48,903 bases of DNA from Patescibacteria group bacterium (GTDB taxonomy: Bacteria; Patescibacteriota; Microgenomatia; UBA12405), in assembly GCA_038062455.1 (NCBI GenBank), contig JBBTXE010000001.1, positions 7,468 through 56,370 on the forward strand. Direction: 5' to 3'. Below are positions 9,722-48,205 of the stretch, piece by piece; the first letter of the stretch is position 1; each line of letters opens with the position of its first letter. The notes below the pieces were generated by a model, which had not been told where the DNA came from, searched no databases, and saw only the letters and a program-made list of their open reading frames with translations. The translations under genes and the position numbers were made by a program.

Positions 9722-10729
9722 TCATCCCTCTATCAACCTATTAATCCCCACTTTTTCTTGCACCCTTTTCAGGGTTTCCTGGACCACTTTCCGGGCCCTT
9801 TTGGTGCCCTCAACCAATATCTCCTTGGCCTCTTTTGGCCGATCCTCGTAATATTTTCTCTTTTCCCGAATTGGTTTGAGGAAAGTATTAAGAGCCACAA
9901 ATAATTTTTCTTTTACCTCTTTATCACCCACTTTCCCCCTTCGGTAGCGGTCCTCCAGATCCTTCACCTCTTCGGCGTTGGGGTTAAAGGCGCGGTGGTA
10001 TTCAAACACCGGGTTTCCCTCTACTTTGCCTGGATCGGTCGCGTGAATTCGGTTGGGATCAGTGTAACAAGCTTGGACTTTTTTCTTCAATGTTTCCTCA
10101 TCGTCGGACAACAAAATCGCATTTCTACCACTTTTACTCATTTTCAATTTGCCGTCAGTGCCAATCAATCGCGGTACCCGACCAATCATTGCTTCGGGAA
10201 TATTAAATGTTTCTCCAAAAGTTTTGTTAAAATCTCTGGCAATTTCTCGGGTTTGTTCAATGACGGGGGATTGATCTTCACCCACCGGTACCAAATTAGC
10301 GTTAAAGCCCAAAATATCAGCCGCCTGAAGAATGGGGTAACAGATAAAGCCCAATGATGGGTCTAAATTTTTGTATTTAATTTCCTCTTTGACCGAAGGA
10401 TTGCGGATAGCCCGTGCATGAGCAACCATAGTTAAAAAATAACTGTAGAGTTCAAGAGTTTCCGGAATACCGGATTCAAGATAGATAGTAGATACCTCAG
10501 GGTCAATACCGACGGCCAAGTTATCCAGATATACTTCGTAAACGTCGCGGTTAATCTTTTCAGCCTGGGTGTAATCGTTGGCGTAGGCATGAACATTAGC
10601 CAGCAGAATATAGGTGTCATATTCGTGTTGAAGTTTGACCCTGTTTTCCAGAGTTCCCACATAATGACCGATGTGCAATTTTCCACTCGGCGTGTCCCCG
10701 GTGAGGATACGTTTTTTGGTTTGATTCAT
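9722..10729 (-). CDS. trpS: Tryptophan--tRNA ligase
   Basis: TGDTPSGKLHIGH, YPILQAADIL, VPVGEDQ, KMSKS. Confidence 0.97.
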   Translation of the reverse strand: MNQTKKRILTGDTPSGKLHIGHYVGTLENRVKLQHEYDTYILLANVHAYANDYTQAEKINRDVYEVYLDNLAVGIDPEVSTIYLESGIPETLELYSYFLTMVAHARAIRNPSVKEEIKYKNLDPSLGFICYPILQAADILGFNANLVPVGEDQSPVIEQTREIARDFNKTFGETFNIPEAMIGRVPRLIGTDGKLKMSKSGRNAILLSDDEETLKKKVQACYTDPNRIHATDPGKVEGNPVFEYHRAFNPNAEEVKDLEDRYRRGKVGDKEVKEKLFVALNTFLKPIREKRKYYEDRPKEAKEILVEGTKRARKVVQETLKRVQEKVGINRLIEG

Positions 10730-10776
10730 AGTTATGATGAAATATTAACATTTAAATTCCTCCTGGCCTCATCCAG

Positions 10777-10853
10777 ATTTCCCCCTTTCTTCAAAGGTCC
10801 ATAGATCCTCGCAGGGGAGAGAAGCCCCGATGAACATCGGGGAGAGGGATTTT
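10777..10853 (+). repeat. Palindromic repeat family copy in the trpS 5' region
   Basis: atttccccctttcttcaaagg-tccatagatcctcgcagg-ggagagaagccccgatgaacatcggggagagggatttt. Confidence 0.85.
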
Positions 10854-10860
10854 AACCCCC

Positions 10861-10892
10861 AAAAAACCCCGCTTTCACGGGGTCGGTTTTTT
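10861..10892 (-). terminator. Attenuator terminator upstream of trpS
   Basis: Minus strand ACCCCGT-GAAA-GCGGGGT followed by TTTTT. Confidence 0.8.
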
Positions 10893-10906
10893 AAATAAAA
10901 AAATCT

Positions 10907-10978
10907 TTATGCCACTAAAACCTCTCCCGCCTCGGACCAGAACTGCCACCAGATTTGAGAGACTGTTTTAGATAACAT
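10907..10978 (-). CDS. Trp-rich leader peptide of trpS (23 aa)
   Basis: ATG TTA TCT AAA ACA GTC TCT CAA ATC TGG TGG CAG TTC TGG ... GCA TAA = MLSKTVSQIWWQFWSEAGEVLVA; TAGAAT 6 nt upstream of ATG. Confidence 0.8.
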   Translation of the reverse strand: MLSKTVSQIWWQFWSEAGEVLVA

Positions 10979-11014
10979 CAGCAAATTCTACCACACAACG
11001 TGATAAAATCAACC

Positions 11015-11218
11015 ATGAAGTTGTTTGATCGTCAAAAATACGATCCGCTTACAGCCTCGGTCTCCGGTGCCGATCCGGTAGCCAGTGCTACCGAAATAAA
11101 GGCAGTTATAACTGACGGGACAGCTTTGGAAAATCAATTACCACCGCTTCCCCCACCTCGGCAAAAAACTTTTCTAAAAGGGGCTGTAACTCTAACTTTC
11201 CCAGCTCCTACTAAATAA
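11015..11218 (+). CDS. Small hypothetical protein (67 aa)
   Basis: TGnTAAAAT 5 nt before ATG 11015; ORF fills the gap before rplY. Confidence 0.45.
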   Translation: MKLFDRQKYDPLTASVSGADPVASATEIKAVITDGTALENQLPPLPPPRQKTFLKGAVTLTFPAPTK

Positions 11219-11270
11219 GTAACGAAGGATGTGTTAAAATCAACCCTAGTTTATTTGGATATTTTCCCAT

Positions 11271-11963
11271 ATGACCAAAAAAATCGCCTCCATTCCCGCC
11301 CAGCTTCGGGAAATTACCGGCCGTAAAGTTAAATCTCTTAGACGCCTTGGATTTACCCCCGCCTCTGTTTATGGTCATGAATTTAAACCGCTCACTGTTC
11401 AGTTTGATACTGTCTCCCTTCAATCAGTTTTCGCCCAAGCCGGTGAATCAACTCTCATCGAAGTGATCATCGGTGAGGACAGATACCCCATTCTTTTCAA
11501 AAACCCCCAATACCACCCCGTCACCTCCGCCCTTCTTCACATCGATTGTCACAAAGTTAACCTTAAAGAAAAAATTGTTGCCACCGTTCCCATCGAGTTT
11601 GTTGGTGAATCGCTGGCCGTTAAAAACGGCAATGTTCTGGTCACCATTCTTGATGAAATCGAGGTCGAGGCTCTGCCCACCGACCTTCCCGAAAAATTCG
11701 TGGTAGATATCTCCACCCTCATCGAAGTTGATCAAATGATCACTGTTGCCAATTTGGAAGTTGACCGCTCTAAAGTTGAACTAAAAACCGACCTTACCCA
11801 AGCCATTATCAAGACCGAAGCTCCCAAAGTTGAAGAAGAACCGGTTGTTCCTGAAGCCGAAGTCGCCCCCGGCGACGTTCCGACTACCGAACAAAAAACT
11901 GACGAAGAAAAAGCCGCCGACGAGGAAGCCAAAAAAGCCGAGGATCAAAAAGAAGAAAAATAA
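11271..11963 (+). CDS. rplY: 50S ribosomal protein L25 / Ctc
   Basis: GRKVKSLRRLGFTPASVYG, QYHPVTSALLHID, EVEALPTDLPE, acidic tail. Confidence 0.95.
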   Translation: MTKKIASIPAQLREITGRKVKSLRRLGFTPASVYGHEFKPLTVQFDTVSLQSVFAQAGESTLIEVIIGEDRYPILFKNPQYHPVTSALLHIDCHKVNLKEKIVATVPIEFVGESLAVKNGNVLVTILDEIEVEALPTDLPEKFVVDISTLIEVDQMITVANLEVDRSKVELKTDLTQAIIKTEAPKVEEEPVVPEAEVAPGDVPTTEQKTDEEKAADEEAKKAEDQKEEK

Positions 11964-14507: not shown

Positions 14508-14750
14508 GTGCGGATTCAACTTTACGATCGCGGTTCACCGGCCGGTAAAAAAATGTTTGCCGATATTGAAGTCATCTGCCAACGTCTCCAAATCGATTAT
14601 GACCCCGAATATATCCAGGATATGCACCGGGTTTATTCCATGGGGATCCAAGGGAAAACGATTTTGTTAATCAATAACGAAGTTGCCCTTATCGACAAAT
14701 ATCCGCCCCTAAAAGAACTCGAACAAATAATTTCAGATTATCTGGAATAA
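14508..14750 (+). CDS. Small thioredoxin-fold-like protein lacking CxxC
   Basis: 80 aa; layout resembles small thioredoxin/glutaredoxin-like proteins, with GSPAG at the CxxC position. Confidence 0.55.
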   Translation: MRIQLYDRGSPAGKKMFADIEVICQRLQIDYDPEYIQDMHRVYSMGIQGKTILLINNEVALIDKYPPLKELEQIISDYLE

Positions 14751-15506
14751 TCTTCTGGCATTTCCGTCAAGAATTTTTTCAGTTTCTTCAAATTCCATCC
14801 CCCAAATTTCTGCTATTTTTTGATATACATATTTAACATTTTCCGGGTAATTTTTTTGTCCCCTAAAAGGCAGGGGAGTTAGCTCGGGCGAGTCGGTTTC
14901 CGCCAACAGTCGGTTATGGGGAATAATTTTGACCACCTCCGCCAATCCCAGCTCATAGGTCACATTTCCGTCTATCCCGAAATACCAGTCTTTACCTAGA
15001 TTAAGCACTTTCTGAACTCTTTTTTTACCCCCTGTATAACAATGAATTACCCCCCGGGTTTCGCTTCCCCTCAATATATCAAACACTTCCTCCACCGCTT
15101 TTCGGGCGTGGACAATTAAGGGCTTGTGGTATCGTTTGGCGAGGGTAATTTGAGCCCGAAAATTTTCAATTTGCAACTCCTTATTATAAGGTTCAATAAA
15201 CTCTAATCCGCATTCTCCCACCGCTACTATTTTTGGATTTTCTTTCAGTAATTTTTCTAAATTTGAAATTTGAAATTTGAAATTTGAAATTATTTCTTGT
15301 GGGTGTATTCCCACCGCTGCCAGCAATTTTGGGTTTATTTTCGCCAGCTTTATATTTGATTTTGATGTTTCTATATTCGATGCTGACAAAACCACATATT
15401 CCAATCCCTCAATTTTAAAATCTTTTAAGTCTCCCTTGTCAAAGGTCCTTAGATCCTCAGAGGGGAGAGATTTAGAGGGATTAACATGCGCATGAGTATC
15501 GATCAT
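14733..15506 (-). CDS. tatD: TatD family hydrolase
   Basis: MIDTHAH, GIHP, VGECGL, IVHAR, HCYTG, ETDSP. Confidence 0.95.
   Translation of the reverse strand: MIDTHAHVNPSKSLPSEDLRTFDKGDLKDFKIEGLEYVVLSASNIETSKSNIKLAKINPKLLAAVGIHPQEIISNFKFQISNLEKLLKENPKIVAVGECGLEFIEPYNKELQIENFRAQITLAKRYHKPLIVHARKAVEEVFDILRGSETRGVIHCYTGGKKRVQKVLNLGKDWYFGIDGNVTYELGLAEVVKIIPHNRLLAETDSPELTPLPFRGQKNYPENVKYVYQKIAEIWGMEFEETEKILDGNARRLFQII
15259..15291 (+). repeat. Heptamer tandem repeat (AAATTTG)x4.7 inside tatD
   Basis: Seen directly; encodes ISNFKFQISNL. Confidence 0.85.
15427..15482 (+). repeat. 56-bp repeat copy in frame in tatD
   Basis: Identical to 16036-16091; encodes NPSKSLPSEDLRTFDKGD. Confidence 0.95.
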
Positions 15507-15755: not shown

Positions 15756-17195
15756 TTAGACTATTCTCGGAAACAACGGCTTCTCCAAAGCCTTTATCTT
15801 TCCGTTTAACACTTTCTCAACTTGTTCACATGTTTCCGGCATAACCGGTTTTAAATAATAGGCTGCTTGTTGTAAATTTTGGACACATTCCGTCAACACC
15901 TCAATTTTTTTCGGATCATTCGCCGGCAACTTCCACGGCGCCACTTCATTTAAACGACTGTTGGATTTATCAATAAACTTTTCAAACACCCAACCAATTG
16001 CTTCATCAAGTTTTAACTCGTCAATTAGTTTTCCAAAGTCTCCCTTGTCAAAGGTCCTTAGATCCTCAGAGGGGAGAGATTTAGAGGGATTTGAAGTTTC
16101 AATTTGTAGTCCACTTGCCAATTTTGTCACCCTGCTCACCAGGTTCCCCAAATTATTCGCTAAATCAGCATTATATTTTTCCTTAAAACGAACAATACCC
16201 ACATCCGAATCATTTTCACCTGGAAACGATCGGGCGATTAAATACCGGCTGCCGTCGACTCCAAACTCATCAATCAATTCCTGCGGGCTAATCACATTCC
16301 CCAGCGATTTGGACATCTTTTGTCCGTCAATCATATAGAAACTATGTGTATAAGTTTTTAGAGGTAACGGGAGACCAGCCGACAACAACATCGCTTGCCA
16401 GATAACCGTATGAAACCATAAAATTTCTTTTCCCAGTAAGTGTAAATTTGCCGGCCAAAAATCCGCCTTTCCTTCAATAAACTGCGTCGCACTATAATAA
16501 TTTAACAGGGCATCAAACCAAACGTAGGCAGTTTGGCTTTTATCCCAAGGCAGAGGAATTCCCCAGGAAACATTTTCTCTGGAAAGCGATATATCGTTAA
16601 CTCCGGCTTTTAGTTTTGCCAAAACTTCAGCCCTCTTCCCTTCAGGGAAAATATAATTAGCTTTGTCGTCTTCGACCAACTCAATTATTTTTGGGACATA
16701 TTTTGATAATTTAAAAAACCAATTCTCTTCACTTTTAAACACCGTTTGCTCCGGCGGATGTAAAGGACAGTATTTATCGACCAGTTCACTTTCAGTCACA
16801 AACTTTTCGCAGCCAACACAATAGTATCCCTCATATTTCCCTTTATAGACATCACCACTATCATAAATTTTTTGCAGCACCTCCGCTACTACTTTTTCAT
16901 GCCGGGGATCAGTAGTTCGAATAAAAAAATCAAAAGAAATATTTAGATTAACCCAAGCCTCTTCAAAACGGGGGGCAACTTTGTCACAATATTCTCTGAC
17001 CCCTAGTTCTTCTTTTTCGGCTGATTCGGCTACTTTTTGACCGTGTTCATCAGTTCCGGTCAAAAAAAATATCTCTTCCTCCAACTGCCGATGCCATCTG
17101 GCCACTATGTCGGCCACTACGGTAGTACAAGTGTGTCCGATATGGGGCACATCATTGATATAATAAATCGGGGTGGTAATAAAAAACTTCTTCAC
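15756..17195 (-). CDS. metG: Methionine--tRNA ligase
   Basis: ITTPIYY, PHIGH, TGTDEHG, YVWFDAL, KMSKSLGN. Confidence 0.97.
   Translation of the reverse strand: MKKFFITTPIYYINDVPHIGHTCTTVVADIVARWHRQLEEEIFFLTGTDEHGQKVAESAEKEELGVREYCDKVAPRFEEAWVNLNISFDFFIRTTDPRHEKVVAEVLQKIYDSGDVYKGKYEGYYCVGCEKFVTESELVDKYCPLHPPEQTVFKSEENWFFKLSKYVPKIIELVEDDKANYIFPEGKRAEVLAKLKAGVNDISLSRENVSWGIPLPWDKSQTAYVWFDALLNYYSATQFIEGKADFWPANLHLLGKEILWFHTVIWQAMLLSAGLPLPLKTYTHSFYMIDGQKMSKSLGNVISPQELIDEFGVDGSRYLIARSFPGENDSDVGIVRFKEKYNADLANNLGNLVSRVTKLASGLQIETSNPSKSLPSEDLRTFDKGDFGKLIDELKLDEAIGWVFEKFIDKSNSRLNEVAPWKLPANDPKKIEVLTECVQNLQQAAYYLKPVMPETCEQVEKVLNGKIKALEKPLFPRIV
16036..16091 (+). repeat. 56-bp repeat copy in frame in metG
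   Basis: Identical to 15427-15482. Confidence 0.95.
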
Positions 17196-32992: not shown

Positions 32993-33165
32993 TCAACCTA
33001 ACTCTACAATCCTTTCAATCTCTCTTTTCAACTTGGGGATTTCGGTTTTGATTACGTCCCAGACCGTCGCATACATAAAAAGTTCCAAGTATTTCCCCCT
33101 TTCTTCAAGGGGGGAGGTCACGAAGTGACAGGGGGGTTTTGACCAACAACTTCAAACTTCGACAT
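32993..33165 (-). pseudogene. HepT/DUF86 HEPN toxin remnant (internal deletion)
   Basis: MSK start overlapping the MNT end (33165) and C-terminal helix TVWDVIKTEIPKLKREIERI* (32993-33076); the middle is absent. Confidence 0.7.
33091..33140 (+). repeat. Palindromic repeat family copy without the core insert
   Basis: atttccccctttcttcaaggggggaggtcacgaagtgacaggggggtttt; first 18 bp identical to 10777-10794. Confidence 0.85.
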
Positions 33166-48150: not shown

Positions 48151-48205
48151 AAACCCCTCTCCCCGATATTCATCGGGGTATCTCCCCTTGAAAAGGGGAG
48201 AAATA
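48151..48205 (-). repeat. Inverted copy of the repeat scaffold
   Basis: aaacccctct-ccccgatattcatcgggg-tatctccccttgaaaaggggagaaata. Confidence 0.9.

Follow-up and report, generated by a model that had tools for sequence, protein, structure and literature searches.

A probable ribosome-mediated tryptophan attenuator on a predicted leaderless transcript, conserved among Candidatus Shapirobacteria

The trpL leader of E. coli and Salmonella (RF00513) combines a short open reading frame (ORF) bearing Trp codons with the helices 1:2, 2:3 and 3:4, and it uses the position of the ribosome as its sensor. The same elements are found upstream of trpS in the window, as we call the whole stretch of 48,903 nucleotides that was analysed, which belongs to a tiny-genome groundwater bacterium from the candidate phyla radiation (CPR). 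Bacteria of this radiation are mostly uncultured and their gene regulation is almost unexplored. A trpL-type logic had been proposed for this locus in a preliminary description, and on sequence grounds it is well supported, since none of the structural elements is missing, 38 copies show them conserved and covarying, and the leader codon tracks the genes that follow.

Several differences nevertheless separate the window's leader from trpL. Its mRNA is predicted to be leaderless and to lack a Shine-Dalgarno (SD) sequence, the Trp codons sit in the loop of helix 1:2 instead of in segment 1, with the stop codon behind segment 2. In addition, the place of trpEDCBA as apparent target is taken by trpS, tRNA-Trp and a lone trpB, and the lineage is the CPR. 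The Rfam model Trp_leader (RF00513) gave a match of 15.9 bits (E = 2.5) at 10859-10957, below its gathering threshold of 41.

In Streptomyces, attenuators of the classical type have been predicted upstream of trpS (trpS2) and leuS (Seliverstov et al. 2005, PMC1262725). The Streptomyces precedent invoked in the preliminary description is thus in print as a prediction, going by the portion of that article drawn on here. The trpS2 attenuator resembles that of the window in being a case of leader-peptide attenuation of a tryptophanyl-tRNA synthetase gene, but it belongs to an unrelated lineage and to an auxiliary second trpS (PMC1262725), whereas the trpS of the window is the only one found in its genome. 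Unlike the Streptomyces case as far as this source presents it, the CPR element forms a large homologous family that is also found before tRNA-Trp and trpB.

In mycobacteria, leaderless short ORFs encoding polycysteine are reported to act as Cys-responsive attenuators (bioRxiv 10.1101/834739). There, as is predicted for the window, the leaderless transcript opens with the sensing ORF. The two systems differ in the amino acid, the lineage and the target genes. Finally, the T-box of Firmicutes does the same job, since it increases transcription of aminoacyl-tRNA synthetase and amino-acid genes when the cognate tRNA is uncharged, and its specificity is likewise switched through one codon-sized element. 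It differs in that it binds the tRNA directly and does not need translation (established knowledge, together with the part of PMC1262725 that treats the subject). No T-box match was obtained in the window at the Rfam gathering threshold, nor in 10600-11300 at E <= 10. At gathering, Rfam recognized three tRNAs only in the whole window, none of them in the leader region, where the matches at E <= 10 were all sub-threshold and included, besides Trp_leader, a tRNA match of 19.6 bits.

The preliminary description knew of no such attenuator in CPR bacteria, and none was found in the literature on attenuation or leader peptides in Patescibacteria or the candidate phyla radiation; supplementary lists of predicted attenuators lay outside this search. 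In the same way, no publication was found on a tRNA gene placed behind a leader-peptide attenuator, supplementary files being again outside the search. As far as these searches reach, novelty lies in the leaderless start, in the occurrence within the CPR, in the targets tRNA-Trp, trpB and trpS of relatives and in the sister elements with swapped codons. Since the mechanism itself is textbook knowledge, the surprise lies in the place of occurrence and in the targets, not in the principle. An experimental study of S. coelicolor trpRS1 is also said to exist.

Anatomy of the leader upstream of trpS

The leader and trpS lie on the minus strand, and their features are collected in Table 1. The sequence TAGAAT, a gap of 6 nt, an ATG and a 23-codon ORF with three Trp codons had been reported before, and this reading proved accurate to the base. 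The extended -10 box TGGTAGAAT is separated by a spacer of 16 nt from the -35-like hexamer, which overlaps the -10 of a divergent promoter on the plus strand. As the box lies 6 nt 5' of the leader ATG at 10978, with TTGCTG in between, a leaderless transcript is predicted. In the ORF list the same frame is given from an upstream TTG at 10984.

Table 1. Features of the putative attenuator and of the trpS region, in window coordinates
Feature	Position	Strand	Basis
-35-like hexamer TTGATT, putative leader promoter	11007..11012	-	promoter-like site in scan
Extended -10 box TGGTAGAAT	10985..10993	-	promoter scan; TG present before the second hexamer
Leader ORF MLSKTVSQIWWQFWSEAGEVLVA + TAA, 23 codons	10907..10978	-	direct reading and ORF list
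Segment 1, 5' strand of hairpin 1:2 (anti-antiterminator)	10957..10972	-	RNAfold; covariation in helix 1 of the family alignment
Putative regulatory Trp codons	10937..10951	-	UGG UGG at 10951-10946 (codons 10, 11); UGG at 10939-10937 (codon 14)
Segment 2 GCGGGAGAGGUUUUAGU, alternative partner of segment 1 or segment 3	10914..10930	-	folding, inverted repeat, pair tables
Segment 3 AAAACCGACCCCGU, terminator 5' strand and antiterminator partner of segment 2	10877..10890	-	folding, inverted repeat
Predicted intrinsic terminator 3:4, 8-bp stem, GAAA loop, U-tract	10861..10884	-	RNAfold; energies against shuffles
Dispersed short-repeat copy between terminator and trpS	10777..10848	-	stretches of 90-100% identity elsewhere in the genome
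Conserved promoter-like motif TGTTAATAT	10742..10750	-	12 nt 5' of the trpS ATG; comparison of relatives
trpS, tryptophan--tRNA ligase, proposed regulated gene	9722..10729	-	TIGR00233, 277.9 bits (cut-off 176.75)

In the RNAfold structures of the window, the 1:2 hairpin encloses the Trp codons and the terminator reads GACCCCGU-GAAA-GCGGGGUU followed by U's (U6). The alternative pairing 2:3 was recovered blindly as inverted repeat I1, with arms at 10878-10890 and 10917-10929. When the helix energies of the window were compared with those of 500 mononucleotide shuffles, the terminator 3:4 (-13.7 kcal/mol) was equalled by none of them, helix 1:2 (-22.9 kcal/mol) by five and helix 2:3 (-14.0 kcal/mol) by 21. 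RNAfold, the inverted repeat and the shuffle energies therefore agree with the three pairings that had been claimed for segments 1 to 4. The fold stability of the entire 259-nt leader was unremarkable (z = -0.82). A consensus terminator scan reported the 3:4 hairpin for the plus strand only and not for the minus strand, where it was missed by the T-count rule of the scan because the extended stem absorbs two of the six T's.

Most likely, the element attenuates transcription by a ribosome-mediated leader-peptide mechanism, responds to the supply of Trp-tRNA(Trp) and belongs to a hitherto undescribed family conserved in Candidatus Shapirobacteria. Because dozens of relatives have the same device upstream of genes for the Trp tRNA, for salvage and for charging, it is very probably a classic ribosome-based Trp sensor, and we infer that the copy of the window functions as an attenuator as well. 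In the mechanism that we infer, from the start of transcription through stalling and kinetic competition to the efficiency of termination and the share of a second promoter, transcription would begin at or next to the AUG of the 23-codon leader ORF and yield a leaderless mRNA. When charged tRNA-Trp is plentiful, the ribosome would reach the stop codon and cover segment 2, or, if it has already gone, helix 1:2 would re-form with the terminator still folding; segments 3:4 would fold and transcription would end about 115 nt from its start. When charged tRNA-Trp is scarce, the ribosome would stall at codons 10/11 (or 14), covering segment 1 and leaving segment 2 free. Segment 2 would then pair with segment 3 ahead of the synthesis of segment 4, no terminator would form, and the polymerase would read through into trpS or, in relatives, into tRNA-Trp, trpB, the racemase gene and trpS. 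In the genome of the window a basal trpS promoter is probably present, and the attenuator would add inducible transcription on top of it.

Conservation and covariation in relatives

The TrpRS loci of 40 relatives provided the first two homologous units of leader and terminator, in genomes G004 and G026. A covariance model was built from these two copies and that of the window and was run on 151 related genomes, where it gave 42 matches (E<1e-3) in 39 genomes, all of which were inspected individually. Trp-type elements account for 35 of these matches, in 35 genomes; 34 fall within the 91 searched genomes of Candidatus Shapirobacteria, the CPR family to which the window belongs, and one in a neighbouring family. 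Together with three copies from Candidatus Shapirobacteria records, 38 distinct Trp-type copies are available. The model search found no second Trp-type copy in the window's own genome, and a weak match there, at C1:457079, is a His-type relative.

A leaderless short ORF is predicted in all 38 copies. Every leader has Trp at codons 8-11, and in every copy a G+C-rich terminator hairpin, with T's behind it, lies 92-105 nt downstream of the ATG. The length of the leader is exactly 23 codons in 29 of the 38. Tandem Trp codons (WW) are present in 19 leaders and a single one in 17, and three Trp codons, the most of all, were observed in the copy of the window alone. Trp makes up 7.3% of the residues of the leaders vs 1.3% in the long-ORF proteome of the window's genome. 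The alignment of upstream regions in relatives, which the preliminary description had advised, thus reveals Trp codons conserved in 38/38 and stems that covary. It is this conservation among relatives, not the single sequence of the window, that excludes chance.

Three copies have an early stop, which shortens the ORF to 12-14 codons and ends it 2-4 codons after the Trp codons and 9-11 codons early, and all three retain segment 2 and the terminator. Since the RNA segments are kept in these copies, the semi-conserved C-terminal AQSGDVLxA is the footprint of RNA segment 2 rather than a conserved protein sequence.

The proposed leaderless start is consistent with the spacing between the -10 box and the leader ATG, mostly 6-10 nt in the 38 copies, and with the SD-like tetramer, which was found in 0/38 leaders. 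A TTGA was observed in the corresponding -35 zone of 17/38 relatives. The genome of the window contains 370 TGnTAnnAT sites, of which 118 have an ORF of at least 60 codons within 22 nt, and among these 118 the spacing between the -10 and the ORF peaks sharply at 6 nt (41 cases), so that the leader ORF has the modal spacing of its genome. Moreover, an extended -10 that stops 4-9 nt short of the ATG was found for 56 of 529 long ORFs vs 2 in the control zone, and an SD-like tetramer for 50 of 529 vs 44 in the control zone. These counts indicate that SD sequences are not used by the window's organism and that many of its mRNAs are leaderless. The leaderless transcript suggested by the preliminary description is therefore supported, at the level of sequence statistics, by the 6-nt spacing, by the 0/38 SD-like tetramers and by the genome-wide distribution of -10 boxes.

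Covariation in helices 1:2 and 3:4 was measured on an alignment of 30 sequences and compared with 500 shuffles. The paired cells amount to 78.8% vs 69.4% in the shuffles, none of which reached the observed value. Both sides had changed in 19 of the 29 pairs and the covariation score was 0.279 vs at most 0.086 when the partners were slid by 1-3 columns, all these counts being inflated by the fitting of the alignment to the covariance model and by the relatedness of the 30 sequences. For helix 2:3, the segment-2 zone was paired with the 5' strand of the terminator from the same sequence. This antiterminator duplex was present in 37/37 scored copies, with energies from -6.7 to -17.6 kcal/mol and a mean of -11.6 kcal/mol, vs per-sequence means mostly between -4 and -9 for shuffled segment-2 zones; when partners were swapped between sequences, 8 of 10,000 swaps equalled the mean of the own duplexes. 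In the register table of 2:3, the GGG:CCC core is invariant and is flanked by several compensatory pair types, for example G-C, U-A and C-G at position -2 and A-U, U-A and G-C at position +5. In two genomes, a change in segment 2 from CGGGAG to UGGGAG/UGGGGG is accompanied by a change in the terminator partner strand from CCCGG to CCCAG. Compensatory changes were thus found in all three helices, 1:2, 2:3 and 3:4.

The effect of ribosome position was modelled by folding the 30 sequences with 30 nt masked as the ribosome footprint, the nascent RNA being taken before segment 4 exists. When the A site held a Trp codon, 28/30 nascent RNAs formed 2:3, and at least five paired bases were counted in 30/30; with the ribosome at the stop codon, it formed in 3/30. 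In nascent RNA at equilibrium with no ribosome, 2:3 beat 1:2 in 19/30. Footprint-constrained folding, which had been suggested as a check, is compatible with the switch in nascent RNA (28/30 vs 3/30), but in full-length RNA at equilibrium the stall mask displaced the terminator in only 14/30 sequences and not in the window, where the terminator stays the minimum-energy structure. In the window, the strength of 2:3 (-14.0) does not surpass that of 3:4 (-13.7). Since the terminator is kept by the full RNA at equilibrium and 2:3 has no advantage in energy, the switch must be kinetic, and the order of RNA synthesis would matter as in the enterobacterial model.

Genes behind the terminator and competing explanations

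The genes behind the terminator were surveyed in the 30 best loci. The first gene called was trpS in 11 of them, while an amino-acid racemase gene (TIGR00035) followed by trpS was observed in five and trpB (TIGR00263, 587 bits) came first in six, with trpS behind it where the contig allows. Three loci have a gene for an uncharacterised 320-aa protein together with a TrpRS-like paralogue, three have genes for other uncharacterised proteins, and in the remaining two the contig is too short. No Pfam families were found for the operon proteins of 431, 319, 464 and 198 aa; the uncharacterised genes of these Trp-attenuated operons are candidates for a role in Trp salvage. In addition, a tRNA-Trp(CCA) begins about 0-70 nt after the terminator in 14 of the 30 loci and in two further copies, that is in 16/38. 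The terminator and the tRNA-Trp generally leave no space for another promoter, and this tRNA-Trp was the sole copy detected by BLAST in four of five genomes checked. These arrangements suggest that in relatives the attenuator commonly also controls the single tRNA-Trp and the lone trpB.

In the window's genome, tRNA-Trp is located on a different contig and is preceded by promoter-like boxes of its own. Neither trpB nor trpA was found in this genome, which is 86% complete, and tblastn searches of it with the trpB, racemase and uncharacterised operon proteins of relatives returned nothing. The suggestion of the preliminary description that scavenged Trp is sensed is in keeping with this negative result for trpB and trpA, but trpB is kept by relatives. 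If the attenuator acts as proposed, it would provide active Trp-tRNA homeostasis in an organism apparently unable to make tryptophan.

The stretch between the terminator and trpS holds an inserted repeat of about 70 nt. The repeat copy mentioned in the preliminary description is real, as stretches of 10848-10777 recur at 90-100% identity, and further copies are present in the window at 15439-15470, 16048-16079, 33091-33108 and 48155-48178. Closer to trpS, the motif TGTTAAAAT/TGTTAAACT with conserved flanks was observed 12-20 nt before the gene in 10/10 loci where trpS follows directly, and it is also kept in most other relatives regardless of the upstream gene. The form present in the window, TGTTAATAT, resembles an extended -10 and is a candidate for a second (basal) trpS promoter or an operator; the latter is conceivable because the TGTTAAAAT motif is partly palindromic in one genus. 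Since this promoter-like motif comes after the terminator, the attenuator probably modulates trpS as an add-on to a basal promoter rather than gating it. The motif could even leave trpS largely independent of the attenuator, and the possible separate trpS promoter is the main uncertainty for the copy of the window.

Taken to its end, this line of thought makes the leader ORF and the terminator a self-contained unit, be it a micropeptide, a small RNA gene or the relic of a tRNA-Trp operon, that would not really affect trpS here, with trpS transcribed from its own promoter TGTTAATAT (10750-10742). The promoter-like motif before trpS in 10/10 direct-trpS loci and in most other relatives speaks for it, as do the tRNA-Trp that is found elsewhere in the window's genome with its own promoter-like boxes and the repeat inserted between terminator and trpS. 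We nevertheless consider this improbable. The element is intact beside trpS in many genomes, several of which have only 48-61 nt between terminator and gene, and the copy of the window is the richest in Trp codons of all 38; the early-stop copies show that the peptide lacks protein-level conservation, and neither RNAfold nor the terminator scan detected a terminator-like hairpin between attenuator and trpS on the minus strand.

It is very unlikely that the leader encodes a TnaC-like arrest peptide, which would sense free tryptophan in the ribosome tunnel, stall the ribosome at the stop codon and thereby regulate the downstream genes. The hallmarks of TnaC are a Trp, an Asp and a final Pro. A similar peptide length, an invariant Trp near the middle and a partly conserved C-terminus recall TnaC, but a C-terminal Pro was found in 0/38 leaders, three copies stop 9-11 codons early with their RNA segments kept, and the C-terminal codons that are conserved are those of segment 2, whose bases covary with the terminator. 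Moreover, the downstream trpS, trpB and tRNA-Trp supply Trp, so that their induction by high Trp would be senseless. Least credible of all is a degenerate tRNA gene or tRNA-like element at 10835-10931, where ARAGORN calls a 97-nt tRNA-Asn(att) and the Infernal tRNA model gives 19.6 bits (701-nt search, E = 0.26): the score does not reach the Rfam gathering threshold of 29, there are mismatches in the acceptor and D arms, the anticodon stem consists solely of A/U, ATT is not a usual anticodon, the variable arm is the terminator, the T arm is a hairpin of the inserted repeat and the call is confined to 1/30 homologous loci, which makes it an ARAGORN false positive.

Sister elements with other codons

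Seven of the 42 matches of the covariance model are not of the Trp type, and those with Thr or His codons are weaker hits. In two of the seven, which lie upstream of thrS (TIGR00418, 685.7 and 717.9 bits), five or six Thr codons stand in a row, and a Thr run is present in one further match. Two matches have His codons, one of them being located between tRNA-His and hisS (TIGR00442, 382 bits), and one match has three Asn codons. The match in G146 (L153) has no visible leader ORF and was left out of the count. The codon of the leader therefore matches the downstream gene, with Trp before tRNA-Trp, trpB or trpS, Thr before thrS and His before hisS, and a codon that tracks the downstream amino acid is the classical signature of leader-peptide attenuation.

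On balance it seems plausible that in Shapirobacteria, and perhaps in much of the CPR, the supply of tRNAs and aminoacyl-tRNA synthetases is placed under one homologous family of leaderless attenuators, in which a codon swap (Trp, His, Thr, possibly Asn and Cys) resets the specificity. If this is true, leader-peptide attenuation would do for the Shapirobacteria lineage what T-boxes do for Firmicutes, as a functional counterpart based on translation, and where, as in many genomes, a single tRNA-Trp or tRNA-His directly follows the attenuator, the abundance of the tRNA would be set by the success of decoding with that same tRNA. It would also give the CPR a regulatory device that is conserved and recognizable from the sequence itself. 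Such a device would imply coupled transcription and translation, with leaderless initiation at a speed sufficient to lead the polymerase, and would be evidence of tight coupling on leaderless mRNAs in minimal cells.

In parallel, the genome of the window was scanned without the model for a -10 box, 4-10 nt, an ATG, an ORF of 8-32 codons and a terminator. This arrangement was found in only seven candidates, including the Trp leader. Another is a leader that ends in ...HHHAK upstream of tRNA-His and hisS; a second His-codon leader lies directly after the tRNA-His, so that two His leaders flank this tRNA upstream of hisS. The same scan also returned one Cys-rich leader candidate.

Probable attenuators with other regulatory codons

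Homologues of the Trp attenuator whose leader ORFs carry regulatory codons other than Trp were found in related genomes, at loci L147 (G011), L148 (G020), L149 (G007), L154 (G065), L155 (G081) and L156 (G043). Among them, two loci have runs of five to six Thr codons (Thr5-6) in the leader with thrS downstream, and one has a His-rich leader that precedes hisS. Another His-rich leader precedes a gene for a deacylase of the ArgE/DapE family, and an MFS transporter lies downstream of a leader with three Asn codons (Asn3).

Outside the window, in the window's own genome (G000), tandem His-codon leader attenuators were observed at C1:456729-457999, on either side of a tRNA-His gene and followed by a HisRS gene (Table).

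Table. Coordinates of the features described in this part
Feature	Position	Details
Motif before trpS	window 10742-10750	same place in L005, L008-L015, L017, L018, L020 and others
44-codon ORF	window 10617-10763 region (-)	ATG 10751; out of frame, overlaps trpS start
67-codon ORF	window 11001-11218 (+)	ATG at 11015; divergent, own leaderless arrangement
Repeat copy	window 10777-10848	trpS leader
Repeat copy	window 15439-15470	inside ORF 14733..15506
Repeat copy	window 16048-16079	inside ORF 15756..17195
Repeat copy	window 33091-33108	
Repeat copy	window 48155-48178	
First His leader	G000 C1, before tRNA-His	leaderless ORF MIKLSSKNIHHHAK + terminator
tRNA-His	G000 C1:456999-457075	between the two His leaders
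Second His leader	G000 C1, after tRNA-His	MNLQFKFNHHPHTVVTIPRGDGVT + terminator; ATG begins at tRNA 3' end
HisRS gene	G000 C1:457587	after second His leader; 66.9% identity to TIGR00442-confirmed hisS
tRNA, anticodon CTA ('Pyl')	G000 C1:386510-386585	ARAGORN; outside window
tRNA, anticodon TTA ('Stop')	L077 3552-3627	ARAGORN; related Shapirobacteria contig

Genes of probably Trp-attenuated operons and TrpRS fusions

Trp-attenuated operons of relatives also contain genes without an assigned role, at L049, L051 and L056 (G023, G063, G021), L052 (G003), L055 and L151 (G055, G082), and L042 and L152 (G012, G070). The operon genes include those for a 320-aa protein together with a TrpRS-like paralogue that scores slightly below the cut-off for PF00579 (20.5 bits), for an aspartoacylase-like protein and its small partner, and for proteins of 431 aa and about 460 aa that matched no Pfam family. 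All of these are candidates for a role in Trp salvage. At L002, L004, L006, L016 and L019 (G019, G007, G020, G003, G023), TrpRS itself carries a fused N-terminal domain that spans about 160-320 aa, in open frames of 494-655 aa. The TrpRS of the window is unfused.

Sequences flanking trpS and its leader

Immediately 5' of trpS lies a strongly conserved motif, AA-TGTTAAAAT-TT(A/C)A(C)TATAAAT, which is present irrespective of the upstream gene and overlaps even the 3' end of trpB. Promoter and operator are both possible readings of this motif. In the same region of the window, the ATG of a 44-codon ORF is preceded at 7 nt by GGAGG (10763-10759, minus strand), which is odd since the genome elsewhere shows no Shine-Dalgarno usage; the frame of this ORF is not conserved in relatives. 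At L017, in a family relative (G024), the region about 250-330 nt upstream of trpS contains a GGTGGCACCGCC motif and, after it, a terminator. This motif resembles the T-box conserved sequence.

On the other side of the leader, a divergent 67-codon ORF has its ATG 5 nt after TGATAAAAT, so placed that its -10 box overlaps the -35 box of the Trp leader promoter. No Pfam family was found for it.

Dispersed repeat and tRNAs with stop-codon anticodons

The dispersed repeat of the trpS leader is inserted in frame in two proteins of the window, a TatD-like hydrolase and a MetRS-like protein, to which it contributes the identical peptide NPSKSLPSEDLRTFDKGD. Such insertions are reminiscent of the Rickettsia palindromic elements. 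Finally, the tRNAs with the anticodons CTA and TTA, one in the window's own genome and the other at L077, are possibly suppressor tRNAs.
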